Source: Escherichia phage_vB_EcoD_Punny
DNA length: 49,765 nt
Reading direction: 5' to 3' (one strand)
Sequence record: OL539444.1
Shown piece by piece: positions 21,585 through 47,738 of the stretch. The number at the start of each line of letters is the position of its first letter. The first letter of the stretch is position 1. Made by a program: the position numbers and the translations under genes. A model generated the notes under the pieces. The model worked only from the letters and a program-made list of their open reading frames with translations, was not told the DNA's origin and ran no database searches.

Positions 21585-21627
21585 ATAGCACTTTTTGCTA
21601 AAACAGCCATTCGATGCGTGGTATACT
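21585..21627 (+). promoter_or_regulatory. dyad-motif promoter unit P1
   Basis: ATAGCACTTTTTGCTAAAAC, 17-nt gap, TGgTATACT in the loop of GATGCGTG/CACGCATC; upstream stop abuts the motif. Confidence 0.55.
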
Positions 21628-21658
21628 ACACGCATCAACCAACAAGAGAGGAAATAAA

Positions 21659-21950
21659 AATGGAACAGCAATTCAATGAACAAGACACTCAAGACGTGCG
21701 CGATCATGTAGGCGGATTTGTAAACGCATTAGGCATTATGCAACGCCAGTTCTTACGAGTAATTGATCCAAGCGAATCACCGGAAACTATTGAATACGTT
21801 CGCAAGGTTGCATATTCGATTGATAACGTTGTGTTAACAGTTCTTCAAATGGAGAATAACGAAGAACACCGCAAGATGATTAATCAGGCAAGTGAAATCA
21901 TGATCCAGAATTTGATTGATTATCACAACGAGAACAAAGAAAAGCATTAA
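21659..21950 (+). CDS. hypothetical protein
   Basis: 97 aa ORF with GAGAGGA RBS, 31 nt downstream of the P1 -10. Confidence 0.5.
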
Positions 21951-21996
21951 TTAACACGGCGGCGCAAGCCGCCATTATTAAACCGGAGTCAATGAA

Positions 21997-22659
21997 ATGA
22001 AATTTTCCGATCAAAACGCAAACGTAATTAAGGCATTGTTTGAGGCGCGTCAGTTATTCACAAAAGTAAAAAAGGATAAGCAAAACACGCACCTTAAAAA
22101 CAAATATGCAACTCTTGACAGCGTTCTTGATGCTATTATGCCTGGCCTTACTGATAAGGGTTTATTCCTTACTCAAGATCAGAAAGTTGGCGAAGATTTG
22201 AAATCAATGACGGTTTTAACTCGCTTCATTCACGTTGAATCAAATGAATGGGTTGAATATAGTTTCACGTTGCCAATGCAGAAATTAGATCCACAAGGCG
22301 GCGGCTCAACAAACAGCTATGCGAGACGTTATGCTCTTTGCACGGCTCTTGGCCTGGCAACGGCTGACGATGACGCAAATCTTGCCACCAAAAACGCGCA
22401 GGATTGGAAAAAAGATCTTGATGCTTGCGATAACCTTACAGACTTGCAAGAAACGTTTAAAACGGCTTACAAGCAATCTGACGCGGCTAACAGGAGAATC
22501 ATTAAAGAGCATTACGACAAGCTAAAAGCAAAAATGGAAATCGGAAAGGCTCGCGGTTTTAATCCGGCAGCGCCAGCGGCTAATGTTGCGAAGAAGGAAA
22601 ATGTTGAAAACGAGCCGCAACAGGAAGTAAAATCTCAATCTATCACAGACTTTGAATAA
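21997..22659 (+). CDS. Erf-like single-strand annealing protein
   Basis: N-terminal region (KNKYATLDSVLDAIMP...) resembles the ERF family; adjacent to SSB. Confidence 0.55.
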   Translation: MKFSDQNANVIKALFEARQLFTKVKKDKQNTHLKNKYATLDSVLDAIMPGLTDKGLFLTQDQKVGEDLKSMTVLTRFIHVESNEWVEYSFTLPMQKLDPQGGGSTNSYARRYALCTALGLATADDDANLATKNAQDWKKDLDACDNLTDLQETFKTAYKQSDAANRRIIKEHYDKLKAKMEIGKARGFNPAAPAANVAKKENVENEPQQEVKSQSITDFE

Positions 22660-22697
22660 ATTAACGTGGGGCGGTAACGCCCCAATAAGGATTAAGA

Positions 22698-23123
22698 ATG
22701 CACGTAATCACCGGAGAAATTCGCAAAGAGCCATTTGTAAAGCAAGGCGCAAACGGCACATTATACATCGTTGAGCTTTCGGAGTCATTTAAAGATCGTG
22801 AAGGTAATCGACAATACACCAATTACAAATTCTTCTTTAATGCTAAAAGCGACGGCATGAATAATTGGTATCGTGAAGCATTTCAGCAGGGTAAAGTTAT
22901 TTCTGTATCATGCGATCAGTTACGCATTGATAGCCAGGAATACAACGGGCAGATTTATAACACATTGACGGCGGCGGGCTTTCCTAATCTTTTATTCAGT
23001 CAACGCGGAGAAGGGCAGGCGCCACAACAGCAGCAACCTCGACAGCAACAACAATCGCCACGCCAGCAAGCGCCTCAAAACAACGAGCCGCCTATGGATT
23101 TTGATGATGATATCCCATTCTGA
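22698..23123 (+). CDS. ssb: single-stranded DNA-binding protein
   Basis: OB-fold-like N-terminus, Gln/Pro-rich linker and acidic C-terminal tail DFDDDIPF typical of SSB. Confidence 0.8.
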   Translation: MHVITGEIRKEPFVKQGANGTLYIVELSESFKDREGNRQYTNYKFFFNAKSDGMNNWYREAFQQGKVISVSCDQLRIDSQEYNGQIYNTLTAAGFPNLLFSQRGEGQAPQQQQPRQQQQSPRQQAPQNNEPPMDFDDDIPF

Positions 23124-23126
23124 TAA

Positions 23127-23155
23127 AATAAAACCCCGCAATGCGGGGTTTTTTA
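23127..23155. terminator. bidirectional rho-independent terminator
   Basis: CCCCGC/GCGGGG stem, 3-nt loop, flanked by an A-run and a T-run; sits between convergent SSB and tail fibre genes. Confidence 0.75.
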
Positions 23156-26519: not shown

Positions 26520-26577
26520 TTCTCAACCTCCAAATAAAAAACCTGGCACGATGATAAACCATGCCAGGCCGTAATTT

Positions 26578-27186
26578 TTAGCAATCAGTGCTATCGACGG
26601 AAATCACAACGCGTTTCTTCTGATTGGCTTCCTTTGCTTTGCGCCGTTCTTCTTTCGCCTTGTCGCGTTCAGCTTTGCGCCGCGCTTTCTCCTTCTCGCG
26701 TTCTTCTGGAGGCATAGACCGTAACGGATCGTAAGGCCGGACAAATCCGCGAGCCTCCGCTTCTTCTTTTGTGACAAATCGCATGAGCTTTCTGTTGCTG
26801 CAACGATTCTCTAATGGCTTGCCGTTGTTGTCAAAGCGCAAATCTGGACGGCAATATGAAGCGCGGAAACCGTTAAAACCTTTGCGGCGGTAATCCTTTT
26901 GGATCAGTTCAGCGCCTTTAGCTGAAATCATGCCGCGCTCTTTCCATCCCCACACTGTTTTAAGGTTAACGCCAATCTCACGCGCCAACGCAGCACAGCC
27001 GCCATAAGCGCTAACCACTTCATCAAGCCTAGCTTTTAATCCTGCCCTTACTTCTTCCTTTAGTACCAGATAACCGCTAACAGGTGCGCGGCGCTTCCGG
27101 TCTTTACCACGCCTTACGCCGTTGTTACCATTGATTGTGCGTTTGTCGATTTCGCCCGTTGAGGCCGCAATTTTGATTTCGCTCAT
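26578..27186 (-). CDS. HTH DNA-binding protein with basic C-terminal tail
   Basis: GGCAALAREIGVNLKTVWGWK resembles a Cro/YdaS-type helix-turn-helix; Lys/Arg/Glu-rich C-terminus. Trimmed to ATG 27186 (GGTGA RBS) because the longer ORF translates the dyad motif. Confidence 0.45.
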   Translation of the reverse strand: MSEIKIAASTGEIDKRTINGNNGVRRGKDRKRRAPVSGYLVLKEEVRAGLKARLDEVVSAYGGCAALAREIGVNLKTVWGWKERGMISAKGAELIQKDYRRKGFNGFRASYCRPDLRFDNNGKPLENRCSNRKLMRFVTKEEAEARGFVRPYDPLRSMPPEEREKEKARRKAERDKAKEERRKAKEANQKKRVVISVDSTDC

Positions 27187-27196
27187 ATTTTCACCT

Positions 27197-27239
27197 ATAG
27201 CACTTTTTGCTAAAACTATTGAGTAAGTTTGTGTATGAT
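27197..27239 (+). promoter_or_regulatory. dyad-motif promoter unit P2
   Basis: ATAGCACTTTTTGCTAAAAC, 17-nt gap, TATGAT; no clear hairpin; drives 27275. Confidence 0.45.
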
Positions 27240-27274
27240 ATGGTGCAAATGGCATTTAGTCAAAAGGATAAGTA

Positions 27275-29250: not shown

Positions 29251-29658
29251 ATGGTTACTGATAAAGGCGATTATCTGGAGTATTACGACAAGTCAGATCC
29301 AGACGATAGGAAGGAGGAAGCGCACCAGGTTGATTCTTATTCATGGTTAACATATGAGTTTCCAATGTGGCTTGTTTGGCACACTAAAAACGAAGGGAAG
29401 AAAACAATAGGCACAGCAGTAAAGGATCAGCAAGCAGGTGTAAAAAAGGGAGTAAGCGACATTCTAATCCTGACTGGTTTTATTGGCTGCAAATATGCAT
29501 TCATTGCAATTGAGCTTAAACGAGCCAACAAGAAAGGAACGAAAGTAAGCCAGGAACAAAGGGAATTCTTGCGCCGCGTTAGGGAATGCGGAGGATTTGC
29601 CGCCGTATGCTATGGAGTAGAGCAAGTAAAATTGGCTATCGCAGACGCTACAAAATAG
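29251..29658 (+). CDS. VRR-NUC domain nuclease (putative)
   Basis: DILIL...IAIELK...EQ arrangement resembles the VRR-NUC D/E-K core; stop codon is the TAG of the next dyad motif. Confidence 0.5.
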   Translation: MVTDKGDYLEYYDKSDPDDRKEEAHQVDSYSWLTYEFPMWLVWHTKNEGKKTIGTAVKDQQAGVKKGVSDILILTGFIGCKYAFIAIELKRANKKGTKVSQEQREFLRRVRECGGFAAVCYGVEQVKLAIADATK

Positions 29659-29698
29659 CACTTTTTGTTAAAACAGGCGCAACGGAATGCGCCATAAT
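29655..29698 (+). promoter_or_regulatory. dyad-motif promoter unit P3
   Basis: ATAGCACTTTTTGTTAAAAC, 18-nt gap containing GGCGCA/TGCGCC hairpin, CATAAT. Confidence 0.55.
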
Positions 29699-29729
29699 GC
29701 ACCCATCAGAACGAAACGGAGAATTAACC

Positions 29730-30749: not shown

Positions 30750-31007
30750 ATGGAAAATATGACAGTTTATTTAATTGAATTTGGAGAGTGGTTGCTTTAT
30801 CGCGGCCTTGTGTGTGAAATGATCACAAAAGAGGGTCATCTAGAAAAGATCGATTGTGATTTATGGGAATTTACCGAATCTCTTGATATGAGTTTTGACG
30901 AAATAAAGGAATTACCGATTGAAGAATGGCCGATTAAAGTAAAAGCTGATCTTGATGAATTCGTTAAAGACTGGGAAATGAGAAACGGAATGATGAGAGC
31001 AGAATAG
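30750..31007 (+). CDS. hypothetical protein
   Basis: 85 aa acidic ORF; stop is the TAG inside the next dyad motif. Confidence 0.45.
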   Translation: MENMTVYLIEFGEWLLYRGLVCEMITKEGHLEKIDCDLWEFTESLDMSFDEIKELPIEEWPIKVKADLDEFVKDWEMRNGMMRAE

Positions 31008-31047
31008 CACTTTTTGTTAAAAATGCCCCGCGAAAGTGGGGCATAAT
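31004..31047 (+). promoter_or_regulatory. dyad-motif promoter unit P4
   Basis: ATAGCACTTTTTGTTAAAAA, 18-nt gap with TGCCCCGC-GAAA-GTGGGGCA hairpin (GNRA loop), CATAAT, leader CAACGAAACGAAA. Confidence 0.55.
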
Positions 31048-31079
31048 CATTTCAACGAAACGAAATTAGGATTTGCAAA

Positions 31080-34114: not shown

Positions 34115-34150
34115 TTTGTTTTCCTTTTGTTGCTACGTTTCGTTAAAACA

Positions 34151-34194
34151 AATATACCCGATACAAGATCGGGTGTTTTAACAAAAAGTGCTAT
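34151..34194 (-). promoter_or_regulatory. dyad-motif promoter unit M1
   Basis: On the minus strand ATAGCACTTTTTGTTAAAAC, 18-nt gap with ACCCGAT/ATCGGGT hairpin, TATATT, leader AACGAAACG. Confidence 0.55.
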
Positions 34195-36287: not shown

Positions 36288-36314
36288 CTGAAAATCTCCT
36301 TCTTGTTGCCGCTA

Positions 36315-36358
36315 ATTATAACGGCAACATTCTACAGCCTTTTAGCAATTCGTGCTAT
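36315..36358 (-). promoter_or_regulatory. dyad-motif promoter unit M2
   Basis: On the minus strand ATAGCACGAATTGCTAAAAG, 18-nt gap, TATAAT inside GTTGCCG/CGGCAAC hairpin. Confidence 0.55.
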
Positions 36359-36962: not shown

Positions 36963-36994
36963 TTGATTTATCTCCTTTTGTTTTCGTTGAAATC

Positions 36995-37038
36995 ATTATG
37001 CCGGATACGTGATCCGGCGTTTTAACAAAAAGTGCTAT
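36995..37038 (-). promoter_or_regulatory. dyad-motif promoter unit M3
   Basis: On the minus strand ATAGCACTTTTTGTTAAAAC, 18-nt gap with CCGGAT/ATCCGG hairpin, CATAAT, leader TTCAACGAAAAC. Confidence 0.55.
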
Positions 37039-38154: not shown

Positions 38155-38376
38155 TCAACCCCACTTCTCAATAAACATGCTCATTTCGTCAATCATCGCG
38201 TAAGCATCGCTTTCAGTCATGCGACGGATTCTTCCGCCTGGGTGTTCGCCAACAGCGTAACCAGTTTTTACGCGGGTAATCGTTAACTGATGGAATCAAG
38301 AATCGCGATCCATTTTCAAAACTACTTTCCCGTGAGCTTTGACAATGTTCATGATGGATTCAGTTTTCAGTTTCAT
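38155..38376 (-). pseudogene. small ORF interrupted by an in-frame TGA
   Basis: ATG 38376 with GGAGA RBS 31 nt after the M4 -10; reading frame open for 73 codons except a TGA at 38296-38298. Confidence 0.3.
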
Positions 38377-38407
38377 TTTTGATTCTCCATTTTGTTTATG
38401 TGAAAGT

Positions 38408-38451
38408 ATGATACCAATCAGAGCGATATCGTTTTTAGCAATTCGTGCTAT
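38408..38451 (-). promoter_or_regulatory. dyad-motif promoter unit M4
   Basis: On the minus strand ATAGCACGAATTGCTAAAAA, 18-nt gap, TGgTATCAT. Confidence 0.5.
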
Positions 38452-38598
38452 TTACGGCGATAAACGGATATCCTGTTAAATCTGCATTTCTATAACGTGC
38501 AGACCTAACCCAACAGCCGCCTTTGCTCATAATTAAAGCGTTTTTATGGTGAATGTTCACGCGGTAAATTCTTCCGGTTTTTATGTTTTTGAAGTAGG

Positions 38599-38832
38599 TC
38601 ATAATTTAACCTCATGATACTCTATAAACTCTTGCACATATGCGCATTCGCGCGGCGACTCCTGGCCTTTTATCACCTCACAGCCACCATTAAACAGATA
38701 GCAGTGCTGGCAAAGGTTGCCACCTGCGTTTTCCTCAGCGATCTGAATTCCGGTACACAAACCGCCACCAAACCTATGAGGAAAATCGTAAGCCTGGCAG
38801 CGGCACGTTGCTTGATTCCGCTTACGTTTCAT
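38599..38832 (-). CDS. Cys-rich small protein (possible zinc-binding)
   Basis: 77 aa with CRC, C...C..C and CQHC clusters. Confidence 0.4.
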   Translation of the reverse strand: MKRKRNQATCRCQAYDFPHRFGGGLCTGIQIAEENAGGNLCQHCYLFNGGCEVIKGQESPRECAYVQEFIEYHEVKL

Positions 38833-39113
38833 TAGATGTTCTCGCTAATAAACTGGATAACCTGGCGAAGATGTTTTTCATCTTTAATTAATGCTGGCAA
38901 TTCTTCCATAACTTCTTTTTTAAGATAAATGTTTGCATTCCAGGTGAATGAGCCATCACCATTTACGCGGTAAGAGCAAAGCCATTCGCAATCATTATCA
39001 GATTCCCAAATGCACAGCGTTTCAAATTCTTCAAACTTGTTGTAACCCGTTTCAATGCTTAACTCAATGCCACGTTTGCCAGCGAAGTTAGTAGTTGTTT
39101 TTGATACCATCAT
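38832..39113 (-). CDS. hypothetical protein
   Basis: 93 aa ORF 31 nt downstream of the M5 -10; GGAGA RBS. Confidence 0.5.
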   Translation of the reverse strand: MMVSKTTTNFAGKRGIELSIETGYNKFEEFETLCIWESDNDCEWLCSYRVNGDGSFTWNANIYLKKEVMEELPALIKDEKHLRQVIQFISENI

Positions 39114-39144
39114 TTTTAAATTCTCCGGTTCGTTTTGATGAATG

Positions 39145-39189
39145 CATTATGCCAAAACAAACCGGATCGCTTTTAACAAAAAGTGCTAT
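39145..39189 (-). promoter_or_regulatory. dyad-motif promoter unit M5
   Basis: On the minus strand ATAGCACTTTTTGTTAAAAG, 18-nt gap, TGgCATAAT, leader CATCAAAACGAACCGGAGA. Confidence 0.55.
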
Positions 39190-39290
39190 TTAATTAAAAT
39201 ACGAATACCTTTTCGCACGCTTTCCGTCGCCTCCGTAATGGTCATTAGCAACAGCAAGAATCCAAGCGTTAGGAATAAAAAATAGCTTCA

Positions 39291-39485
39291 TCAATCACTC
39301 TCCATGACAATTACAGGCTCCAGGCGCTCAAGCACCACTTTGAAATCGGAGTAAAAAGTAGGGCGACGTTTTGTTAATTCCTCATATGTATCAGTTGCCA
39401 GGCAAGCGCGATCACCTTCATAGCACACAACTCGCTTACCATTTGCGCGACTGATTGCAACGACGCGATAAGTATTATTGATCAT
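39291..39485 (-). CDS. hypothetical protein
   Basis: 64 aa ORF coupled to its neighbours. Confidence 0.4.
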   Translation of the reverse strand: MINNTYRVVAISRANGKRVVCYEGDRACLATDTYEELTKRRPTFYSDFKVVLERLEPVIVMESD

Positions 39486-39718
39486 TTCATCACCTCAATT
39501 GAATAAATACTTTCAACGCCTGGCGCGTATAACCGCTTTCCATCTTCAGTTATGCAAAGACAAAGGGCAAGGCCGCGATTGTCTGAAATATGCAAGTCAT
39601 TTTGTCTATCCATCAAAATTTCATATTCGCGATCTTCATCAAAGCGCCAAACTCTTAACATGCACTTTCCAGATGATTTAACTTTTACTTTCTTTCCGAT
39701 GAAATTTAAACGACTCAT
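39482..39718 (-). CDS. hypothetical protein
   Basis: 78 aa ORF overlapping its neighbours by 4 nt. Confidence 0.4.
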   Translation of the reverse strand: MSRLNFIGKKVKVKSSGKCMLRVWRFDEDREYEILMDRQNDLHISDNRGLALCLCITEDGKRLYAPGVESIYSIEVMK

Positions 39719-39933
39719 TGTGCAGCCTCCACAGTTTCAAATACGGTATTGAATGCCAGAAGTTTAAATTTCTTGCCAGGCTCAACCACTGCGATATTCC
39801 AGGTAATGCCGCCGTGATATGCAACCATATCATCAATATCAACAGTAACCTCAGTACCTTTTTTGAACAATCCTTTTTCGTGGCTCGCATCGCGTACAGT
39901 AACCACAGTTTCGAATTGAGTTTGAATTTCCAT
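39715..39933 (-). CDS. hypothetical protein
   Basis: 72 aa ORF. Confidence 0.4.
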   Translation of the reverse strand: MEIQTQFETVVTVRDASHEKGLFKKGTEVTVDIDDMVAYHGGITWNIAVVEPGKKFKLLAFNTVFETVEAAQ

Positions 39934-40007
39934 CGTTAATCTCCTGATTGGTTTCGATGGGGTAACTATATCAAGATACCCCGATCCTTTTTTAGCAATT
40001 CGTGCTA

Positions 40008-40292
40008 TTAGCCAAACGCTTTAATTTCGAAATCTTCTTCTGCCTGATTAGCAACCGCCGTGAACATTTGCTCAAGAGTTTCAAATCCGAAATGTTTAGC
40101 GATCTCATAAGCCGCTTTACCTTCCGTCTGCATGTTTAGCGCTTCGCAATAGTGCATTTCCAGATTGTTCAGGTATTTGTTGCCAGTTGGGATTGCTGCG
40201 TCGATTTTGTCCCACACGATCCAAAAGTTTGTTTTGTCAGCCGCTGCGAGTACAAAGTTTGTCTTGTCTACTGCAATCACTAAGTTTTCCAT
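40008..40292 (-). CDS. hypothetical protein
   Basis: 94 aa ORF 31 nt downstream of the M6 -10; first gene of the leftward cluster. Confidence 0.5.
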   Translation of the reverse strand: MENLVIAVDKTNFVLAAADKTNFWIVWDKIDAAIPTGNKYLNNLEMHYCEALNMQTEGKAAYEIAKHFGFETLEQMFTAVANQAEEDFEIKAFG

Positions 40293-40323
40293 CGTGTAAT
40301 CCTCAGTTCGTTTCGTTGATGTA

Positions 40324-40368
40324 ATTATAGCAATTCGCGTCTGATTGGTTTTAACAAAAAGTGCTATT
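40324..40368 (-). promoter_or_regulatory. dyad-motif promoter unit M6
   Basis: On the minus strand ATAGCACTTTTTGTTAAAAC, 19-nt gap, TGcTATAAT, leader CATCAACGAAACGAA. Confidence 0.55.
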
Positions 40369-40376
40369 CATGCGAT

Positions 40377-40404
40377 AGACCGATTGGTCTAGACCGTTTG
40401 GTCT
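40377..40404. promoter_or_regulatory. tandem palindromes AGACCGNTTGGTCT x2 (operator-like)
   Basis: Two adjacent 14-bp imperfect palindromes immediately upstream of unit M6. Confidence 0.45.
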
Positions 40405-40407
40405 AAT

Positions 40408-40530
40408 GAACGCATCGTTTTGTGTATCGAACGCATTCACGATCACGTTATACGATCACAATATGATCATGTTGATGATTGATGTGTGAGTTGATGTGAT
40501 TTGATTTGATTAGATTTGATTATATTTGAG
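40408..40530. repeat. GATC cluster and GATTT/TGATG iteron-like tract (possible origin or regulatory region)
   Basis: Repeated GAACGCAT, three closely spaced GATC sites, then TGATGATTGATGTG and five GATT(T/A) pentamers; no ORF. Confidence 0.4.
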
Positions 40531-40667
40531 TAGTGAGAGAGCAGAAATAATCACACCTTGCCGATCAGAGAAAACTTTTCCCGCAAAAAATCACTCCAGG
40601 CTCAGCTCGTTTCGTTTTGTTCCTCGCCGTTCCCATCCCGACCTTCCGCAGTTTAGCGCAACGTTAC

Positions 40668-40740
40668 ACAACACGTATAACAACAAAATATCTATATAAT
40701 ACATTGAAAAGTAAGATAATTATTATTATATATCTATATT
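40668..40740. repeat. conserved AT-rich intergenic element, copy B
   Basis: Matches 20171-20245 (two identical blocks of 20 and 25 nt). Confidence 0.7.
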
Positions 40741-40956
40741 GTTATATAACTTGTTTTGCTTGTTTCTCATGATATTGATACCCCTTCACGGATTTATAGA
40801 GTATAAAATTATAAGATAGGTGCTCTTATTTATTATAGGTGGCGGTGATTTTTAGCGAAATGGTGTAACGATTTAGAACATCGTTGATTTGAAAGGATAA
40901 ATTTTCAATTACTGTTACATTGCGTGATGTTTTTGTTGCCTAATCAAAAATAACAC

Positions 40957-40984
40957 TTGACGCATAAGCCAGGTTTGCTAAGAT
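40957..40984 (+). promoter_or_regulatory. sigma70-like early promoter
   Basis: TTGACG, 16-bp spacer, TAAGAT; about 34 nt upstream of ATG 41019. Confidence 0.5.
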
Positions 40985-41018
40985 TTCTGCATCGAGCAAC
41001 AACGGAGGATAACCAATC

Positions 41019-41306
41019 ATGGTAAGGGGCAAAATCGTAAAGCGTGACCTATCCATAGTTGATGCAACGCCAGAAGATGCAACCAAAGATATCATGCGCC
41101 TAATGTACATAGCGCGGATACTGGAGGCTGCAAAACCAAACAGGCTGTATTACATCGACATTAAGGCATCCGGTCGCGACGTTAATTCATTGCGCCAGGC
41201 AATAAACACGATTGCTAAAGAGGATCGCAGAACAATTAAGACAATAACCACTGATAACGGCTATATCGGCTTTGTTATCATCGACGTTAAAGAAGCGTTT
41301 GTGTAA
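41019..41306 (+). CDS. hypothetical early protein
   Basis: 95 aa ORF with GGAGGA RBS; first gene of the rightward early array. Confidence 0.5.
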   Translation: MVRGKIVKRDLSIVDATPEDATKDIMRLMYIARILEAAKPNRLYYIDIKASGRDVNSLRQAINTIAKEDRRTIKTITTDNGYIGFVIIDVKEAFV

Positions 41307-41317
41307 AGAGGTGAATC

Positions 41318-41761
41318 ATGGAACAAATGACAAGTAAAGAGTTTTGCGAAAAATTGCGCGAAGCTGCAAGAGCCGCTGCAACAGGTGAAGTGATAAAGTT
41401 GCCAGTTGCCTATATCACAATGCACGTTCAGGCAGAGGACGCAAAGAAGCTAAATTCCTCATACATTCGCACGATCATGAATCGCGTACCTGAAGTAAAA
41501 GAGGTTGGATCTGTAAGCGTAAAGAAAAAGACAAGTGATGACGGAGCGGAATATTACGAGATCGCAATCAATCGTGACACAAAGCGCCGCATCGTAACAA
41601 TTAATGACCTTCCGGCAATCAAAGAGCATGAGCGCGAAAAACTGATCGAAAAGATTATGCGCATATCGCCGGACTTCTCACACCTGGACGATGAAAAGGC
41701 ACTTGTTGCAATGCGAGCGGTTGCCACGTTCAAAGATCTGATTAAGGAGATCGCGAAGTGA
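41318..41761 (+). CDS. hypothetical early protein
   Basis: 147 aa ORF. Confidence 0.5.
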   Translation: MEQMTSKEFCEKLREAARAAATGEVIKLPVAYITMHVQAEDAKKLNSSYIRTIMNRVPEVKEVGSVSVKKKTSDDGAEYYEIAINRDTKRRIVTINDLPAIKEHEREKLIEKIMRISPDFSHLDDEKALVAMRAVATFKDLIKEIAK

Positions 41762-41865
41762 AAGCATTCGCATTTATCGCTGCAATGTGGTGCGTTGCAA
41801 TCGGTCATCCTGGCGTGGCGCTTGCGTTGTGCGTATTTATTTTGTTGGGGGTGTTTGATGAATAA
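41758..41865 (+). CDS. small hydrophobic peptide (35 aa, GTG start)
   Basis: AAGGAGA RBS 7 nt upstream; start overlaps the upstream stop; single predicted transmembrane helix. Confidence 0.3.
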   Translation: MKAFAFIAAMWCVAIGHPGVALALCVFILLGVFDE

Positions 41866-41971
41866 GAAACTTTTAGATCATGCCGTGGTGTTCTTTATCG
41901 CTGCTGCTGGATTTTCGCTGTTGTCAATTGCTTTTTCAATCCTTGCTTTTGCCGTGTCAATGCTGAAATGA
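41858..41971 (+). CDS. small hydrophobic peptide (37 aa)
   Basis: MNKKLLDHAVVFFIAAAGFSLLSIAFSILAFAVSMLK. Confidence 0.3.
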   Translation: MNKKLLDHAVVFFIAAAGFSLLSIAFSILAFAVSMLK

Positions 41972-41993
41972 CGGATTACATCCTGATTGGCAA

Positions 41994-42037
41994 ATAGCAC
42001 TTTTTGTTAAAACTCGATTGGGGTAGTTTGGCATAAT
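41994..42037 (+). promoter_or_regulatory. dyad-motif promoter unit P5
   Basis: ATAGCACTTTTTGTTAAAAC, 18-nt gap, TGgCATAAT between GGGGTA and TACCCC, leader CATCGAAACGAAACGAGG. Confidence 0.55.
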
Positions 42038-42068
42038 TACCCCATCGAAACGAAACGAGGAAAACACA

Positions 42069-42227
42069 ATGACTACCTTAATCACCTGGGAACACGAAAC
42101 AAGCCAGCCAGTAACCCGCGAGTTTGAAACTCTTAGCCAGGCTTATCTGCTGGCTGCTAACGGTGGTTATTACAAGGCTCAAGTTATTGATGAAATGGGA
42201 GTGATCGTTTATGAATTCCATGCATAA
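42069..42227 (+). CDS. hypothetical small protein (52 aa)
   Basis: ATG 31 nt after the P5 -10; below the track cut-off. Confidence 0.4.
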   Translation: MTTLITWEHETSQPVTREFETLSQAYLLAANGGYYKAQVIDEMGVIVYEFHA

Positions 42228-42492
42228 TTTCCGCAGCTACACGCAGGAAGTGGATTTTGATGGGATCAAGTTACCACTTCCTAACATATACCGCTATATC
42301 ACTCGTGATGAATACGGATTTATAAACGCATGGCGAGATAAGCCAAAAAAGGTTGGCAATGAATACGGCGACGGCTCAGAGATGCCGATCACGTTAGGTC
42401 ATCAAACTGGCGAAAATGTATCGGCTGTAATGCGCAAATATCGCCGCAGCCGCACAAACTCATTAATTTCTATCTTTGGCATACCGGAGTAA
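42211..42492 (+). CDS. hypothetical protein
   Basis: 93 aa ORF. Confidence 0.4.
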   Translation: MNSMHNFRSYTQEVDFDGIKLPLPNIYRYITRDEYGFINAWRDKPKKVGNEYGDGSEMPITLGHQTGENVSAVMRKYRRSRTNSLISIFGIPE

Positions 42493-42497
42493 TAAAA

Positions 42498-42755
42498 ATG
42501 TTTGAACTGAAACGCGTAACTGTTGAGATCCTGAATGATGGCTCTTACGATGGAATGAAACACTTAACCTTCCCGATCCGCATTGAAAATTGCATTGATT
42601 ATGGGATCGAAGTTGGCATGGTTGACGTTCCGCTTGATGCACTTATCGCGGCTGGCTATGACAAAGAGAAAGGCCAATGTGCTGATATACCGGATAGCTA
42701 TGAAAGCGACACACATTTCCCGTTCACATATGGAGAATGCCGGATTGTTGATTGA
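42498..42755 (+). CDS. hypothetical protein
   Basis: 85 aa acidic ORF. Confidence 0.45.
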   Translation: MFELKRVTVEILNDGSYDGMKHLTFPIRIENCIDYGIEVGMVDVPLDALIAAGYDKEKGQCADIPDSYESDTHFPFTYGECRIVD

Positions 42756-42828
42756 GGTGATAAAGTGAGCAGTTGGCACAATGAGCACGTAATGCAATTC
42801 TACCGCCACAGAATAAAGAAAATGCTAA

Positions 42829-42872
42829 ATAGCACGAATTGCTAAAACTAAATCAGGGGAATTTGTTATAGT
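42829..42872 (+). promoter_or_regulatory. dyad-motif promoter unit P6
   Basis: ATAGCACGAATTGCTAAAAC, 18-nt gap, TGtTATAGT flanked by AGGG/CCCT. Confidence 0.5.
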
Positions 42873-42905
42873 GCCCTCGTTGAGTTAAGCAAAGGAGAAT
42901 CAACA

Positions 42906-43460
42906 ATGTTAAGCATCGAAAAAATCAACTTCCCGATCACATTTAAAAATTGCGCTGACGGTAGAAATATTACATATCACAGTGAATACAGCAACGGCGT
43001 TTGGAGTAGCGGCGAGAAAAGCAGTCTTTCATTGCAATATTTCATTAAGCTGCATAATGAGCATAACCAAAGCAATAGTAATGTGTTGAGGTACTATTAC
43101 GAAATGGCAGAAAAACGCGAGGATAACGATCTGTTAGATGCGATGAAATATTTAAATATCAAGCCTGGCCAGGTTAATTTAAACGGTGCTGTGTTTACTG
43201 CGTCAGTAGGTGCTAAAGATTACGATTACATTTGCAAGGTTGAAAATATGCCAGTTGGCGCAACTCTGTTAGGTGTTCAGCGTGAAAATGGCGAATGGGA
43301 CGAGTTGAAATTTAAACCGCGCCGCATTGAAGTACACGACGATGTTATTTGCTTGCTTTCCGGTTATTCTGGAGGTTACAAGAGCGGCAATAATTACGGA
43401 GCTGAAATCAACATTAAGATCGGTACTAACGTAAAAATCAAAAACAGCACGAATTGCTAA
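42906..43460 (+). CDS. hypothetical protein
   Basis: 184 aa ORF with AAGGAGAA RBS; the C-terminal NSTNC and stop are encoded by the next dyad motif. Confidence 0.5.
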   Translation: MLSIEKINFPITFKNCADGRNITYHSEYSNGVWSSGEKSSLSLQYFIKLHNEHNQSNSNVLRYYYEMAEKREDNDLLDAMKYLNIKPGQVNLNGAVFTASVGAKDYDYICKVENMPVGATLLGVQRENGEWDELKFKPRRIEVHDDVICLLSGYSGGYKSGNNYGAEINIKIGTNVKIKNSTNC

Positions 43461-43486
43461 AACAAATTAACGGCCTTGCGATATAG
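43443..43486 (+). promoter_or_regulatory. dyad-motif promoter unit P7
   Basis: ACAGCACGAATTGCTAAAAC, 18-nt gap, TATAGT in the loop of GGCCTT/AAGGCC. Confidence 0.55.
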
Positions 43487-43519
43487 TAAGGCCATACCAA
43501 ACAAACCGGAGAAGTTAAC

Positions 43520-43696
43520 ATGAAATTATATGGTGTCGCTGGAATCGCTTTCTTTTCTTTGTGGATTGCTGCAATCGCTGGCTGGATCATGAATATCGTT
43601 GAAATGTTTGGCGATATCACAACCAACGAATTAATCATTCGCGCAATCGGGATATTCGTTGCACCTGCTGGCGCATTAATGGGCTGGTTCATGTAA
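43520..43696 (+). CDS. small membrane protein (58 aa)
   Basis: Two hydrophobic segments; CCGGAGAA RBS. Confidence 0.4.
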   Translation: MKLYGVAGIAFFSLWIAAIAGWIMNIVEMFGDITTNELIIRAIGIFVAPAGALMGWFM

Positions 43697-43739
43697 TAGC
43701 ACTTTTTGCTAAAACAAAATTTCGGGGTTGCGGTATAGT
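43696..43739 (+). promoter_or_regulatory. dyad-motif promoter unit P8
   Basis: ATAGCACTTTTTGCTAAAAC, 18-nt gap, TATAGT in the loop of GGGGT/ACCCC. Confidence 0.55.
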
Positions 43740-43769
43740 GACCCCACACAAAACAAAGAGGATCAGATA

Positions 43770-44096
43770 ATGGAATTAGCACGTAACGCAATTTATGGTT
43801 TGCACCTCAAAGGCGGAAAAGGTTTTACTTGTGCCCACCTTTTTCATGTGAATGAGCGTGGTCAGATGGATATCGCAATGTTTGTTGACCAAAGGGTTAA
43901 GAAAGGCGGTGAGGGTGATTGTGATACATTCCGACCGGATTTAGTTGAATACGATCACACATACAGTCATGATCACTGGATTGGTCACGGTCGCAAGTTT
44001 GTAATGGTTAATAGCCACGTTACCGACACAAGCAAAATCACTGCATCGCAGTATAAGCGCATGGCTCGCAAGGTTATGAAGTTAGAAGCGCAATAG
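43770..44096 (+). CDS. hypothetical protein
   Basis: 108 aa ORF with AAGAGGA RBS; stop is the TAG in the next motif. Confidence 0.5.
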   Translation: MELARNAIYGLHLKGGKGFTCAHLFHVNERGQMDIAMFVDQRVKKGGEGDCDTFRPDLVEYDHTYSHDHWIGHGRKFVMVNSHVTDTSKITASQYKRMARKVMKLEAQ

Positions 44097-44136
44097 CACG
44101 AAATGTTAAGCGGTCATGTGTGCTGATTGGTACAAT
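44093..44136 (+). promoter_or_regulatory. dyad-motif promoter unit P9 (degenerate motif)
   Basis: ATAGCACGAAATGTTAAGCG, 18-nt gap, TGgTACAAT within GGTCAT/ATGACC hairpin. Confidence 0.45.
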
Positions 44137-44168
44137 GACCTCATCAAACAACAAGAGAGGATAGAAAA

Positions 44169-44276
44169 ATGTCAAAAGAATCAATTAAGCAGTTTCTGAA
44201 ATACGGCTCTATGATTGTGCTCGCTACCGTTGTGCTGGCTGGTATCGCTTACAGTGTCATTGAATTTGTGGGGTAA
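44169..44276 (+). CDS. small hydrophobic peptide (35 aa)
   Basis: MSKESIKQFLKYGSMIVLATVVLAGIAYSVIEFVG; GAGAGGA RBS. Confidence 0.35.
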   Translation: MSKESIKQFLKYGSMIVLATVVLAGIAYSVIEFVG

Positions 44277-44279
44277 TGG

Positions 44280-44843
44280 ATGTTTAAGATCGAATTGTGG
44301 GGCAAGGAATACACTAATCACTACGTTGCAACAAAACAGCGTTTCGTGATTTTCGACCTGGACGGCACATTGTCAAACGGCATTAACCGTTTGCACCTTT
44401 TGCCAACTGTTGATTTACATCTTACTGAAAGCTGGAGTGAGTTTAATCGCGCCGCAAAGGATGATTTACCATTCAGGGATAACATAGCCGTTTGCAATGC
44501 TATGTTTGATGCCGGATACCTGGTTATTATCCTAACAGGACGTAGTGATGAAGTTGAAGCAGAAACGCGATCCTGGTTAGCTGAAAACGGCGTTTCTTTC
44601 GATTGGCTGATTATGCGCCGCGCGGAGGACAACCGGAAAGATACCGTGATCAAAGAGGAAGTTTTACGCGCTATCGGCCTGGAGAATATCGTTGCATGTT
44701 GGGATGACTCACCAAACGTTATTGCACACCTGCGCGGCCTGGGCTTGACTGTTTACCAGGTCATTGACTACGGCGAGCAGTTACACGATCACTTAAAATC
44801 TCACGGCGTGGAGGAATTGAGCGATGACAGCAAAGCTAATTGA
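44280..44843 (+). CDS. HAD-superfamily phosphatase (polynucleotide 3'-phosphatase-like)
   Basis: FVIFDLDGTLSNG (DxDGT motif I), 187 aa. Confidence 0.55.
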   Translation: MFKIELWGKEYTNHYVATKQRFVIFDLDGTLSNGINRLHLLPTVDLHLTESWSEFNRAAKDDLPFRDNIAVCNAMFDAGYLVIILTGRSDEVEAETRSWLAENGVSFDWLIMRRAEDNRKDTVIKEEVLRAIGLENIVACWDDSPNVIAHLRGLGLTVYQVIDYGEQLHDHLKSHGVEELSDDSKAN

Positions 44844-45012
44844 AGATCGTCATGGTGATAACGTGCTTATTTACATCGAAGGGAAATCGGTTTGGATTGA
44901 CTGCAAATATGAGGATGACACACATTTGCAGTTTCGCGGAATCTTTGACAAGAAAGGCGCGTTAGAGTTAGCAGAACACATCAAGCTGCTTGCGGAAGAA
45001 TTACCGGAATAG
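44824..45012 (+). CDS. hypothetical protein
   Basis: 62 aa ORF overlapping the upstream gene end. Confidence 0.4.
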   Translation: MTAKLIEDRHGDNVLIYIEGKSVWIDCKYEDDTHLQFRGIFDKKGALELAEHIKLLAEELPE

Positions 45013-45022
45013 AGGATTTATT

Positions 45023-45208
45023 ATGTTGACTTTTATCTTGATCGCTATAGTTTTAATTCTGTATATTTGCGGCGCTTTCCTGATGCGAGCGCTACTAAAA
45101 GAGGCTGACGCTGATGATAAGGATAGTTGGAAGCCGATTATTTTATGGCCTGGATATATCATCGTGCCGATTTACGAACTAATCCGCGATGGTGAGTTTA
45201 AGTGGTAA
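45023..45208 (+). CDS. small membrane protein (61 aa)
   Basis: N-terminal transmembrane helix; AGAGGA RBS. Confidence 0.4.
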   Translation: MLTFILIAIVLILYICGAFLMRALLKEADADDKDSWKPIILWPGYIIVPIYELIRDGEFKW

Positions 45209-45252
45209 ATAGCACTTTTTGCTAAAACTTGCTAAGGCACATTTGATAAAGT
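45209..45252 (+). promoter_or_regulatory. dyad-motif promoter unit P10
   Basis: ATAGCACTTTTTGCTAAAAC, 18-nt gap, TGaTAAAGT in the loop of AAGGCACA/TGTGCCTT. Confidence 0.55.
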
Positions 45253-45285
45253 GTGCCTTGTCGAGACAAGCAAGGAGAATGACAC

Positions 45286-45582
45286 ATGAAAGTTTTTATG
45301 ATTAAACAGTTTGGACGCGCTGCATATTATATCATCAACGACGAGGGAGATATTTTCATTTCGAACTATCCGACTCTTGAAGTTGGGCGTCATTTCAGAA
45401 GTTCAGTTGACGAAAAAGGAATTATCAATATGGTTGAGTGTGGAATGATGGTTCCCTTCAATAAAGAAGCGGCTGAATTATTCCAGCAATCACAGATCCG
45501 AAAGCGCAACCGCAATATTATTTGCTTTACCGTCGCAATGGTTGTAACTGTTGGCTCAATCTTACTTGGAGTGTGGGCGTGA
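45286..45582 (+). CDS. hypothetical protein with C-terminal transmembrane helix
   Basis: 98 aa ORF with AAGGAGAA RBS. Confidence 0.45.
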   Translation: MKVFMIKQFGRAAYYIINDEGDIFISNYPTLEVGRHFRSSVDEKGIINMVECGMMVPFNKEAAELFQQSQIRKRNRNIICFTVAMVVTVGSILLGVWA

Positions 45583-45764
45583 TGAATCTTGATAATAAAG
45601 TTGAAACGCAAAAGACGATTGATTATCTGCGTGACCTTGCCGACAAGCTGGAGAATAACCAGATTCATTTAAATGAGATCGTTATTGAATCGCGCAACGT
45701 TTGTTGGAACGTTGAAGAAGAAACATTAACCATGCAAGTTTTAAAGGCGGTAGACAATGGCTAA
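45582..45764 (+). CDS. hypothetical protein (60 aa)
   Basis: ATG overlaps the upstream TGA. Confidence 0.35.
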   Translation: MNLDNKVETQKTIDYLRDLADKLENNQIHLNEIVIESRNVCWNVEEETLTMQVLKAVDNG

Positions 45765-46332
45765 AATTATCATCCTTAACGCGCCTCCAGGTGCTGGTAA
45801 AGACACAATCGGCAAGATGATTTCTTTCTATTCGCCTGGTGAGCAATGCCGCATCATTAGCTTTAAAGAGCCAATGTTTGACATTGCATTAGCTATCCTG
45901 GGCAAAGAGAACTATCAGCGTTTCATGCTGGCTTACGATGACAGAGAGCAGAAAGAAAGGCCACAAACGTTCCTGATGGGTATGTCGCCTCGAGAGTTCA
46001 TGATCTGGATTAGCGAGGATGTGATCAAGCCTAAATTCGGCAAGGATTATTTCGGCGTAAGGTTTAACCAGAAAGTAAAAGAGTGTGATGCTCCTGTTGT
46101 TTGCACTGATGGTGGTTTTCCAGATGAAATTATCGCTCTAATCAATGCTGGTAATGAGGTGAAGTTATGCCGATTGCATCGCGACGGGTTCACGTTTGCA
46201 GGTGATAGCCGCAACTACATTCGAATCAATCCCTATTACCAGAAAAACGGATATAGCGAGCACGATTACTTATTAACCAATGAAAAGCCGATGATTACAG
46301 TTAGCGAAATCATTCGCGATCACCTTAAATAG
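45757..46332 (+). CDS. P-loop kinase (nucleotide/polynucleotide kinase-like)
   Basis: N-terminal Walker A NAPPGAGKDT; 191 aa; near the HAD phosphatase. Confidence 0.5.
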   Translation: MAKIIILNAPPGAGKDTIGKMISFYSPGEQCRIISFKEPMFDIALAILGKENYQRFMLAYDDREQKERPQTFLMGMSPREFMIWISEDVIKPKFGKDYFGVRFNQKVKECDAPVVCTDGGFPDEIIALINAGNEVKLCRLHRDGFTFAGDSRNYIRINPYYQKNGYSEHDYLLTNEKPMITVSEIIRDHLK

Positions 46333-46372
46333 CACGAATTGCTAAAACTTGCGCAAGGCCATTTGTTATAGT
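46329..46372 (+). promoter_or_regulatory. dyad-motif promoter unit P11
   Basis: ATAGCACGAATTGCTAAAAC, 18-nt gap, TGtTATAGT in the loop of AAGGCCA/TGGCCTT. Confidence 0.55.
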
Positions 46373-46407
46373 GGCCTTATTCAAGAGAAGCAACCGAGGA
46401 ATAATCG

Positions 46408-46605
46408 ATGAAAATCAAATGCACCAAATCAAACACCATGAATCTGACAGTTGGCGCAATTTACCACATGGAAGATGGTGTAAACGGATTTAGCCCGACT
46501 GTTACGCATGAATACGGCGGTCACTTCTTCTTAAACGGTAAAGACGGATTATCTGTAAATGTTGGCTCTTTCGTTCTGGCAGAATTTGAGATCGTGGAGG
46601 AATAA
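46408..46605 (+). CDS. hypothetical protein
   Basis: 65 aa ORF. Confidence 0.45.
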   Translation: MKIKCTKSNTMNLTVGAIYHMEDGVNGFSPTVTHEYGGHFFLNGKDGLSVNVGSFVLAEFEIVEE

Positions 46606-46606
46606 A

Positions 46607-46771
46607 ATGTTCTGGATTCATTCGCCGCAAGGATTGCTTTATGTGCCTGGCGTTGAATTGGAAGAACGACGCGACGGCGACACGGTAAACATCATAACGA
46701 AGGATTCAAAAGGCCATACACTAAAAACGTATGTTTTTAACACTCCGGTTAAGGTTGAAAAAGATGATTAG
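46607..46771 (+). CDS. hypothetical protein (54 aa)
   Basis: GGAGG RBS. Confidence 0.35.
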   Translation: MFWIHSPQGLLYVPGVELEERRDGDTVNIITKDSKGHTLKTYVFNTPVKVEKDD

Positions 46772-46946
46772 ATTTATTGGTTTTGTGGCATTGCTTTTGT
46801 GCGGCATATTGCTTACTGACAATGACACTTGGCAAAGTGCTGTTGGCGGCTTACTTATTTTTCTTGCTGGTGGCATGGTTGGCAGTGATGACGCAGCAAA
46901 CAAGAATAAACTTTCAGATCATTTACGCAGAGAGACAAAACGATGA
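46764..46946 (+). CDS. small membrane protein (60 aa)
   Basis: Two hydrophobic segments. Confidence 0.35.
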   Translation: MIRFIGFVALLLCGILLTDNDTWQSAVGGLLIFLAGGMVGSDDAANKNKLSDHLRRETKR

Positions 46947-47188
46947 ATAGAAAAATGCTGGTACGAGCATTCGCAAAGATTGCTAAAAGATGGGGTGATT
47001 CAGCTAAAACGCCTTACACGTTTAGCCGATACGGTTATAAAAATGCTCGCGCCTGGGGTCGCTGCATTGCTGATAACTACAACTCCGAAATGATGGAAGA
47101 TTTTGCAAAGTGGATTGATACGCCTTTGAAGGATTGGTGTCAATTTGACTATGACTATTTCGCAGAAGAAGAAATTTCTTGTTGGTAA
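46943..47188 (+). CDS. hypothetical protein
   Basis: 81 aa ORF. Confidence 0.4.
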   Translation: MNRKMLVRAFAKIAKRWGDSAKTPYTFSRYGYKNARAWGRCIADNYNSEMMEDFAKWIDTPLKDWCQFDYDYFAEEEISCW

Positions 47189-47200
47189 GGAGAATAAAAT

Positions 47201-47698
47201 ATGAAAGCTAAAAATGATTTTTATAACTACCTGACAAAAGGCCGTGACTATACCGTTTTGAATAGCATAGATACTCTTTACCTGGTTGTTGCTGATAATG
47301 GCGTTAGAGTTTGGCTTGATAAAACTCTTTTCGAAAGCGAGCACCTAAGCAACGCAAAGCGGATCGCAGATGAAGCAAGCGCATTAGCAGAGCGTGAACG
47401 AATTCGCGATATAGTAGCGGAGCAGGTTAGAAATTCATGTTCGCCTGGTGGCGATATCTTCAAATCAATGCGCGGTGAAATGACGGTTGGAATTCAAGAT
47501 CGCGTAATTTCAAAGTCAGTTGATTCTGTAATTGAGAATGCGCGATTCAATGCGTTGATTAACTCAGAGCATAACGAATACGTCAAAGCATTAGAGCAAC
47601 TGCGTGAAGTGCTGCGAGTGCCGGAAGGTGAAAATATTGTGACTCATGCAAAGGTTGTAAGAGCGTTGGCTGATGCGCTGATTGGTCTGCAAAAATAG
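47201..47698 (+). CDS. hypothetical protein
   Basis: 165 aa ORF with AAGGAGAA RBS; stop is the TAG in the next motif. Confidence 0.5.
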   Translation: MKAKNDFYNYLTKGRDYTVLNSIDTLYLVVADNGVRVWLDKTLFESEHLSNAKRIADEASALAERERIRDIVAEQVRNSCSPGGDIFKSMRGEMTVGIQDRVISKSVDSVIENARFNALINSEHNEYVKALEQLREVLRVPEGENIVTHAKVVRALADALIGLQK

Positions 47699-47738
47699 CA
47701 CTTTTTGTTAAAACTTCCGCGAGGGCATTTGTTAAAGT
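47695..47738 (+). promoter_or_regulatory. dyad-motif promoter unit P12
   Basis: ATAGCACTTTTTGTTAAAAC, 18-nt gap, TGtTAAAGT in the loop of GAGGGCA/TGTCCTC. Confidence 0.55.

Follow-up and report, generated by a model that had tools for sequence, protein, structure and literature searches.

When phage TLS was re-annotated (German et al. 2024, PMC11447400), 18 intergenic direct repeats of 21 nt with the consensus aaATAGCACnnnTTGnTAAAA were described, which run co-directionally with transcription about 76 nt 5' of start codons and which the authors also report from T1, Rtp and Rogue1. Just three sigma70-like promoters were identified in that genome; stoperators, enhancer sites or UP elements were suggested as functions of the repeats, and their role was listed as an open question (PMC11447400). 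The subject here is the same element in a stretch of 49,765 nucleotides from Escherichia phage vB_EcoD_Punny (OL539444.1), hereafter the window, where it forms the upstream part of 20 promoter-like units. Judging from sequence, it is fairly likely that these units are class II sigma70 promoters dependent on the host regulators MarA, SoxS, Rob or RamA, which suggests that the phage would run its early programme on regulators of antibiotic resistance in its host.

The DNA site of these regulators, the marbox, has been defined by the Grainger laboratory as gcannwwntgnnaaa, a non-palindromic and oriented Enterobacterial site (PMC12052159), and it is read by a monomer of MarA, SoxS, Rob or RamA through two different helix-turn-helix (HTH) motifs (PMC12052159, PMC9178005). 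In class II promoters a forward marbox lies over the -35 position, there is no recognisable -35 element and the activator displaces sigma region 4 (PMC12052159, PMC10268841, PMC9178005, PMC8811837). The class II promoter of micF (E. coli/Klebsiella) is the one used in the cryo-electron microscopy activation complexes of Rob and RamA, in which one activator sits on GCAC and CAAA, over the -35, and touches sigma70 region 4 and the alpha C-terminal domain (PMC9178005, PMC8811837).

A family of twenty units

The window is almost identical to Citrobacter phage vB_CfrD_ZerotoHero (MW021748.1; Drexlerviridae, Tempevirinae, Tlsvirus sazh), a T1-like virulent siphophage of about 50 kb. The core TAGCA-N5-TGYTA gives 30 strand-matches in the window, compared with 0.21 expected from shuffled sequence, and 20 full units were found (12 on the plus strand and 8 on the minus strand; Table 1), every one of which is aimed at its downstream gene. 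The original prediction, made from the letters of this DNA alone, had listed 18 copies. Every one of them is present, 16 at the positions given and two displaced by a single base (43444-43463 instead of 43443, and 40348-40367 instead of 40349-40368), so the repeat family itself was confirmed while its total fell short by two full units with motifs at 39989-40008(-) and 26575-26594(-). The units had also been described as confined to non-structural genes, which is correct for complete units; two extra motif copies without a -10 module occur in the late-gene region, at 6386-6405(-) and 16271-16290(+).

The window units and the TLS repeats are the same element, with sequences identical or near-identical to DR1-DR18 of TLS, and the distance from motif to start codon in the window (37 + 6 + about 31-36 nt) compares with the value of about 76 nt for TLS. 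A fixed -10, a marbox match and hairpin covariation are features of the present analysis that the TLS paper does not contain, although two of the hairpins are annotated there as terminators (T57 and T62) (PMC11447400). The bare repeat has therefore already been published, whereas the promoter architecture and the marbox identity appear to be new. Searching for the exact motif string returned unrelated papers only. No published link of the marbox, Rob, MarA or SoxS to T1-like phages was found in the searchable literature, a body that lies outside subscription journals, and no transcript-start map of a member of the Drexlerviridae was found in it either.

The motif is kept in related T1-like genomes, a check that the original prediction had proposed. 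With a matrix derived from the window units, 15-23 copies were detected in each of six Drexlerviridae genomes representing six genera or subfamilies (the window phage, TLS, T1, Rtp, Klebsiella phage 1513 and JK06), all of them from phages of Enterobacteria. When the full-unit pattern was searched in IMG/VR, almost all of the matches listed were contigs of 41-52 kb with several units each, a result that is uninformative on use outside the family. Also among the matches listed was one lone unit match at positions 1645-1688 of a contig of 167,773 bases (L021), within an apparent coding sequence; this match is probably due to chance.

Promoter architecture

The 20-bp motif is followed by 18 nt and then a -10 hexamer in 18 of the 20 window units, and by 17 nt in the remaining two, so that the fixed spacing proposed earlier stands with a range of 17-18 rather than 17-19 nt. 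All 20 hexamers conform to [T/C]AnnnT, a pattern with a genome background of 3.5% per position, and a TGn precedes the hexamer in 12 of them, in line with the frequent TGn that had been noted before. In the six genomes a TAnnnT-type hexamer is located at +36 to +38 in 105 of 115 copies and at exactly +37 in 90. Every one of the 20 window units is oriented forward, as is each of the 105 family units with a -10. Among 100 unique family units, the hexamer never varies at A2 and T6, 81% have G at -14, 42% have TGn and 85% have A as the seventh base past the hexamer; in the window the predicted +1 is A in 15 of 20 units. The discriminator before this position is C-rich (tACCyC; for example at window positions 42038-42060). 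Since G at -14, A at +1 and the invariant hexamer bases are features of promoters, the start is predicted at +49 from the first T of TAGCAC.

Leaders tend to open with ATCGAAAC or ATCAAC and are A-rich as far as the GGAG ribosome-binding site. Of the 20 window units, 7 contain the word CGAAAC and 11 have an ATCGA, ATCAA or TTCAA opening, so the 'conserved leader' of the original prediction holds as a tendency and not as a constant sequence. Start codons, as called automatically, follow the hexamer at 26-36 nt, where 27-36 nt had been stated; the distance of 26 nt belongs to unit 45209 and probably reflects a mis-called ATG.

The -35 window reads TAAAAC or AAAACN in the units without any -35 hexamer, and a canonical -35/-10 scan with 16-18 nt spacing called none of the 20. 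The missing -35 had been spotted in the original prediction. As class II promoters of the MarA/SoxS/Rob/RamA regulon typically lack a recognisable -35 (PMC10268841), a marbox at this place would explain its absence. The site is centred at about -41/-42, with a real -10 and no -35. This is the class II activator geometry that had been proposed, and it supports a reading of the units as promoter-like modules. In the region 33800-49765, canonical -35/-10-like sites are depleted (23, compared with 37.1 +/- 5.6 in shuffles), as if spurious sigma70 promoters had been selected against in this early region.

Other classes of promoter fit less well. The sigma54 consensus, TGGCAC-N5-TTGC with its GG and GC elements, resembles the phage motif TAGCAC-N4-TTGC. 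A sigma54 (-24/-12) promoter was rejected because the phage motif has AG instead of GG, its GCAC-to-TTGC spacing is 2 bp short of the consensus and a sigma70 -10 stands at a fixed distance. Reading TTGYTA as the -35 was rejected as well, as it would leave a spacer of 22 bp, which is too long. The same distance, outside the 16-18 nt of the sigma70 scan, makes it very improbable that polymerase itself reads the motif as an UP element combined with an odd -35 and without an accessory factor. TTGCTA and TTGTTA do resemble TTGACA, A/T tracts are phased at about 10 bp and UP elements are mentioned in the TLS paper (PMC11447400), but an invariant GCAC at about -47 to -44 does not belong to an UP element and the -35 window is TAAAAC.

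Correspondence with the host marbox

Applied unchanged, the published pattern gcannwwntgnnaaa has 21 matches in the window compared with 2.09 expected, of which 18 are units and one is a late copy; the exact 15-mer is thus present in 18 of 20 units and the other two deviate by one mismatch. A host matrix was built from the 70 Salmonella chromatin immunoprecipitation sequencing (ChIP-seq) sites of MarA/SoxS/Rob/RamA in Table 1 of PMC10268841 (consensus GCACAAATTGCTAAA), with no phage sites included. The 19 best sites of this matrix in the window are 19 of the units, at 16.0-17.5 bits. The phage sites thus lie nearer to the consensus than those of the host, for which the same matrix gives a median score of 11.0 bits, with 16.6 at the 90th percentile and 17.9 for the best site.

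The reverse comparison gave a corresponding picture. A matrix made from 94 phage units alone was run blind on the sequences upstream of E. coli marRAB and micF, and in each region the sole positive match was the known marbox: ATGCCACGTTTTGCTAAATC for marRAB, backward, at 13.5 bits (next best -10.5), and ACAGCACTGAATGTCAAAAC for micF, forward, at 11.4 bits (next best -7.6). Positions 6, 7, 8 and 12, which vary in the phage motif, are the n/W/Y positions of the marbox, and positions 7 and 8 alternate exclusively between A and T (the 'ww' of the pattern).

Counted from motif position 0, micF has its -10 TAGAAT at +37 and its annotated RNA 5' end at +50. The phage units share this layout, with a 20-bp forward marbox in place of the -35, then 18 bp, a -10 at +37 and a start at about +49/50, and the GCAC and AAA blocks fall at the same places. 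They differ from micF in their number (about 20 per 50-kb genome), in the RNA hairpin that overlies most of them and in that their activation by Rob, MarA or SoxS is a prediction. The class I marbox of marRAB is arranged differently, as it is backward and 5' of a normal -35, whereas the phage units are forward and take the place of the -35. The window units therefore combine the marbox pattern gcannwwntgnnaaa / AYnGCACnnWnnRYYAAAYn in forward orientation with -35 overlap at the micF spacing and with the absence of a -35 next to a sigma70-type -10, the starts being predicted. On these grounds the motif matches the asymmetric Enterobacterial marbox, set forward over the -35 position.

Asymmetry of the site and candidate readers

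The original prediction had seen TAGCA-N5-TGCTA as a dyad for a phage-encoded dimeric protein or a modified host polymerase. This is unsupported, because the conserved positions form no symmetric pattern and the motif always faces the -10 in the same direction. In the phage matrix C5 (0.91), T9 (0.97), A15 (0.98), A16 (0.93) and A-1 (0.94), and likewise A17, are conserved without a symmetric partner, and the partner position of the invariant G2 (0.98) is C in 59% and T in 38%. Half-sites and flanks are not conserved with two-fold symmetry. The palindromic look of GCA...TGC is a property of strong marboxes and no evidence for a dimer.

No homologue of MarA, SoxS or the N-terminal part of Rob (Rob-N) rose above noise when 3188 six-frame open reading frames (ORFs) from six Drexlerviridae phages were searched with hmmsearch and phmmer (best E 0.14). 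A phage-encoded AraC/MarA-type activator was rejected on these profile and pairwise searches, and the activator would therefore be that of the host, with about 20 early and middle units depending on it. Two HTH proteins had been named as candidate readers of the motif, and neither candidacy found support. For the protein at 26578-27186 the Cro/YdaS-type HTH match (26.5 bits) is under the Pfam cut-off of 30, PDB E-values are 0.4-0.6 and nothing ties the protein to the motif; for the N-terminus of 31551-32666 the HTH matches are also sub-threshold (E 0.0025).

We nevertheless weighed the earlier model, in which the Cro-like HTH protein or an unrecognised early protein activates the units in an immediate-early to middle cascade, and find it unlikely. 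The core is partly palindromic, a perfect palindromic copy lies in the leader of the HTH gene's mRNA, and this gene has a canonical sigma70 promoter of its own, so that its product, found in 830 phage records of the family, could be made first. In addition, A1 and T9 are stricter in the phage motif than in host marboxes. On the other side, a site for a dimer would be symmetric, which does not agree with the asymmetric conservation and fixed orientation, the short, weak HTH match comes without evidence of dimerisation or specificity, and the match to host ChIP-seq sites together with the micF geometry would need to be coincidence. The copy beside the HTH gene is simply the helicase unit; for this reason, and for its weak Pfam and PDB matches, the Cro-like protein was set aside as an unlikely motif reader. 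A better-looking dimer operator is the tandem palindrome TAGACC-N4-GGTCTA, which would suit such a protein better than the unit motif does. It belongs to a repeat-rich divergent control region between both early arms (40370-40984), possibly the place of operators, an origin or a pac region.

The surroundings of the HTH gene show a dense packing of signals. The -10 of the helicase unit (TATGAT, plus strand) and that of the HTH promoter (TATCAT, minus strand) are formed by the same bases within 27234-27263, and these putative divergent promoters should exclude each other. The leader of the HTH mRNA traverses the helicase-unit marbox. The longest start of the ORF, 27255 (26578-27255, minus strand) and apparently that of GenBank, would overlap the helicase unit as well as the promoter of the gene itself; a more likely start is the ATG at 27186, which has an AGGTGA Shine-Dalgarno sequence and gives 202 aa.

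Activators that work from upstream boxes are also known from other phages. At the PRM promoters of lambda and P22, cI and C2 bind OR2 (about -42) as dimers on symmetric sites. The phage units are similar in that an HTH protein near -42 would touch sigma region 4, but they differ in the asymmetric conservation of the site. In T4 middle promoters the MotA box is centred at about -30, 11-13 bp from the -10, and is read by the phage proteins MotA and AsiA. Here too a good -10, no -35 and an upstream box for an activator are combined, that of T4 working with a remodelled sigma70 region 4. The box of the present units, however, ends 18 bp before the -10, has its centre at about -41 and not -30, and matches a host activator site, so a MotA-box middle promoter was rejected.

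RNA hairpins over the promoter-like units

Most units also encode an RNA hairpin. In 97 unique units, the stretch from the motif end to just past the -10 has a mean minimum free energy of -10.0 kcal/mol compared with -5.3 kcal/mol in dinucleotide shuffles, with a mean z-score of -2.2 and z < -1.64 in 59%. The stems vary in sequence between units while pairing is retained. Folding is stronger in the sense than in the antisense direction (z -2.53 and -1.45, Wilcoxon p = 1e-9), though composition is near-balanced and would slightly favour antisense; for unit 47695..47745 the values are -15.6 and -6.2 kcal/mol. Some of the loops are GAAA or UUCG tetraloops, and together with the sense/antisense asymmetry this indicates that the hairpins form in RNA made from upstream. 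Hairpin arms flank the -10 in 42 of the 97 units, lie wholly in the 18-nt spacer in 19, and are weak or absent in 34. Terminator-like hairpins are few (unit 26544-26594 with a 13-bp stem and T6, and unit 34144-34194, in which the scan flags 34174-34156). Most hairpins flank the -10, have loops of 6-12 nt and continue with AUCGAAAC instead of a U-run. Most likely the hairpin would end or stabilise the upstream message, using the sole unconstrained bases of a compact junction, and terminator or stabiliser and promoter would thus share the same ~50 nt. A paper on base-pair distortion by MarA (PMC12781870), considered as a link to the -10 inverted repeats, concerns a sigma28 promoter and is not applicable.

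As the hairpins are clearly features of the sense RNA, the whole unit could alternatively be a signal in long transcripts, in which the dyad and the second hairpin serve processing or stability and the hexamer is loop sequence. The C/T alternation at motif position 12 would indeed keep a G-C or G.U pair in a putative UAGCA/UGYUA stem. This reading is nonetheless extremely improbable: other motif variants disrupt the stem uncompensated, a 5-bp A/U-rich stem is weak, the TAnnnT hexamer keeps a constant distance from the motif whether it falls within or outside the hairpin, and G at -14 together with A at +1 is typical of promoters. Folding of the dyad itself into an RNA hairpin was rejected in its own right, as variants in T1, Rtp and JK06 disrupt its pairing without compensation.

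Motif copies in the late region

Among the late genes, a backward marbox covers the spacer and the first -10 bases of a sigma70-like promoter 5' of the major capsid gene. The arrangement is kept in TLS and T1, and a hairpin and then a ribosome-binding site follow. Marboxes that cover a core promoter are treated as repressive (PMC12052159), and the copy at 6386-6405 is, to judge from its placement, in a repression-type position. Copies like the forward one at 16271-16290, again without a -10, are found in T1 before terS and in T1 and Rtp before the side tail-fibre gene.

Such copies bear on the idea, raised by the TLS authors (PMC11447400), that the motifs are negative elements of the stoperator or operator type, where a bound host or phage protein would block polymerase at active extended -10 promoters and shut off early genes. 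The classic repression position of the copy in the capsid-promoter spacer, the copies without a -10 just 5' of late genes in the window, T1 and Rtp, and the extended -10 of 12 units would all agree with it. But 8 of the 20 units lack both a -35 and TGn and on their own would be very weak, a forward motif fixed at -41 fits activation and not occlusion, and repression of the MarA type uses sites over the core promoter (PMC12052159). For the units as a whole it is therefore improbable.

Table 1. Units and other features located in the window. Spans of units run from the marbox to the predicted start; marboxes and -10 hexamers of minus-strand units are given from high to low coordinates.
Feature	Span	Strand	Marbox or motif	-10 hexamer	Hairpin	Remarks
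Unit 1	21585..21634	+	ATAGCACTTTTTGCTAAAAC 21585-21604	TATACT 21622-21627	8 bp, flanking -10	predicted +1 A 21634; serves small ORF, then Erf recombinase and SSB genes
Unit	26544..26594	-	ATAGCACTGATTGCTAAAAA 26594-26575	TATCAT 26556-26551	13 bp + T-run (T6)	not in original prediction; predicted +1 26544; hairpin is terminator T57 of TLS paper; serves primase gene
Unit	27197..27246	+	27197-27216	TATGAT 27234-27239		serves helicase gene
Unit	29655..29705	+	present	CATAAT 29693-29698	GGCGCA/TGCGCC within 18-nt spacer	
Unit	31004..31054	+	present	CATAAT 31042-31047	8 bp in spacer, GAAA tetraloop, G.U pair	
Unit	34144..34194	-	34194-34175	TATATT 34156-34151	ACCCGAT/ATCGGGT + ATATTTGTTT in spacer	terminator-like score
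Unit	36308..36358	-	ATAGCACGAATTGCTAAAAG	TATAAT 36320-36315	GTTGCCG/CGGCAAC, flanking -10	serves ATPase/helicase-like gene
Unit	36988..37038	-	present	CATAAT 37000-36995	GCCGGAT/ATCCGGC in spacer	
Unit	38401..38451	-	ATAGCACGAATTGCTAAAAA	TGgTATCAT 38413-38408	weak	
Unit	39139..39189	-	present	TGgCATAAT 39151-39146	not convincing	
Unit	39958..40008	-	ATAGCACGAATTGCTAAAAA 40008-39989	TGaTATAGT 39970-39965	GGGGTA/TACCCC, flanking -10	not in original prediction
Unit	40317..40367	-	40367-40348	TGcTATAAT 40329-40324		first promoter of leftward arm
Unit	41994..42044	+	present	TGgCATAAT 42032-42037	14 bp, bulged, TCGATTGGGGTAGTT/AATTACCCCATCGA around -10	
Unit	42829..42879	+	ATAGCACGAATTGCTAAAAC	TGtTATAGT 42867-42872		
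Unit	43444..43494	+	ACAGCACGAATTGCTAAAAC	TATAGT 43482-43487	GGCCTT/AAGGCC	marbox has C where micF too has C
Unit	43696..43746	+	present	TATAGT 43734-43739	GGGGT/ACCCC	
Unit	44093..44143	+	ATAGCACGAAATGTTAAGCG	TGgTACAAT 44131-44136		weakest marbox; serves polynucleotide kinase cluster
Unit	45209..45259	+	present	TGaTAAAGT 45247-45252	AAGGCACA/TGTGCCTT	
Unit	46329..46379	+	present	TGtTATAGT 46367-46372	AAGGCCA/TGGCCTT	
Unit	47695..47745	+	present	TGtTAAAGT 47733-47738	GAGGGCA/TGTCCTC with G.U pair	
Sigma70-like promoter	6381..6408	+	TTGAAC-16-TGcTATATT			5' of major capsid gene
Backward marbox	6386-6405	-	ATAGCATTTTTTGTTAAACG			over spacer and first -10 bases of capsid promoter
Forward marbox-like copy	16271..16290	+	ATAGCACAAAAGGTTAAAAG	none		directly 5' of tail-fibre gene start, after terminator
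Cro/YdaS-type HTH protein	26578..27186	-				202 aa, ATG at 27186; conserved across Drexlerviridae
Canonical sigma70 promoter of Cro-like HTH gene	27235..27263	-	TTGACT-17-TATCAT			corresponds to P57 of TLS
Tandem palindromes	40376-40405		TAGACC-N4-GGTCTA			control region
Repeat, two copies	40439-40464		ACGATCAC			control region
Repeats, 10-bp-phased	40487-40527		GATTTGATT			control region
Imperfect inverted repeat, 35 nt	40667-40758					control region
Sigma70 promoter	40957-40984		TTGACG-16-TAAGAT with TG			control region

Discussion

The proposed mechanism takes the element A-T-A-GCAC-N4-T-T-G-Y-T-AAA-A-C as an asymmetric site for one monomer of a host activator of the MarA/SoxS/Rob family. 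Candidates would be Rob, MarA and SoxS in E. coli, joined by RamA in Citrobacter, Klebsiella and Salmonella. With one HTH on GCAC (about -47 to -44) and its second HTH on the AAA block (about -35 to -33), the activator would occupy the place of the -35 hexamer. It would recruit RNA polymerase by way of sigma70 region 4 and of the alpha C-terminal domain, like Rob, SoxS and RamA on micF. Polymerase would then use the (T)GnTAtaaT -10 located 18 bp downstream and start at the conserved A 7 nt past the hexamer. In this way about 20 early and middle transcription units, including those of host-takeover ORFs, kinases, methylases, helicase, primase and recombination genes, could be wired to a host factor.

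Several observations weigh against such a dependence on the host. T1-like phages multiply rapidly in ordinary broth. Unstressed cells contain little MarA and SoxS, and most of the Rob protein is sequestered or aggregated under standard growth conditions (PMC10268841). A screen of Keio single deletions with the Tlsvirus LL5 makes no mention of rob, marA or soxS, an outcome that redundancy of the three could mask. Units with an extended -10 might fire without an activator. The phage motif is also stricter than the marbox at A1, at T9 and in the upstream A run, which leaves room for an additional or different reader, and a phage protein dissimilar in sequence and of convergent specificity could be that reader.

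In a speculative extension, for which the chances are rather low, outsourcing of the early programme to super-consensus marboxes would make copy number a clock, as thousands of high-affinity marboxes produced by replication would titrate a limited activator. The ~20 early promoters would then be shut, the capsid promoter freed of its backward marbox and host efflux and envelope-defence promoters drained. Infection would be boosted by bile salts, salicylate, oxidative stress and the mar/ram-up mutations typical of multidrug-resistant isolates.

Reading the repeats as class II marboxes converts the question left by the TLS paper for T1-like phages into simple experiments. The units might further provide compact, portable and stress-responsive promoter parts, and an RNA hairpin nested inside a promoter spacer represents an extreme compaction of signals. 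Consequences for phage-antibiotic interactions would follow if the reading is true, as TLS and U136B use the MarA-regulated TolC as receptor, and clinical strains with mar/ram-up mutations might be better hosts. On the same condition, these phages would offer an unusual example of a virulent family with about 20 promoters tied to the multidrug-efflux regulators of the host.

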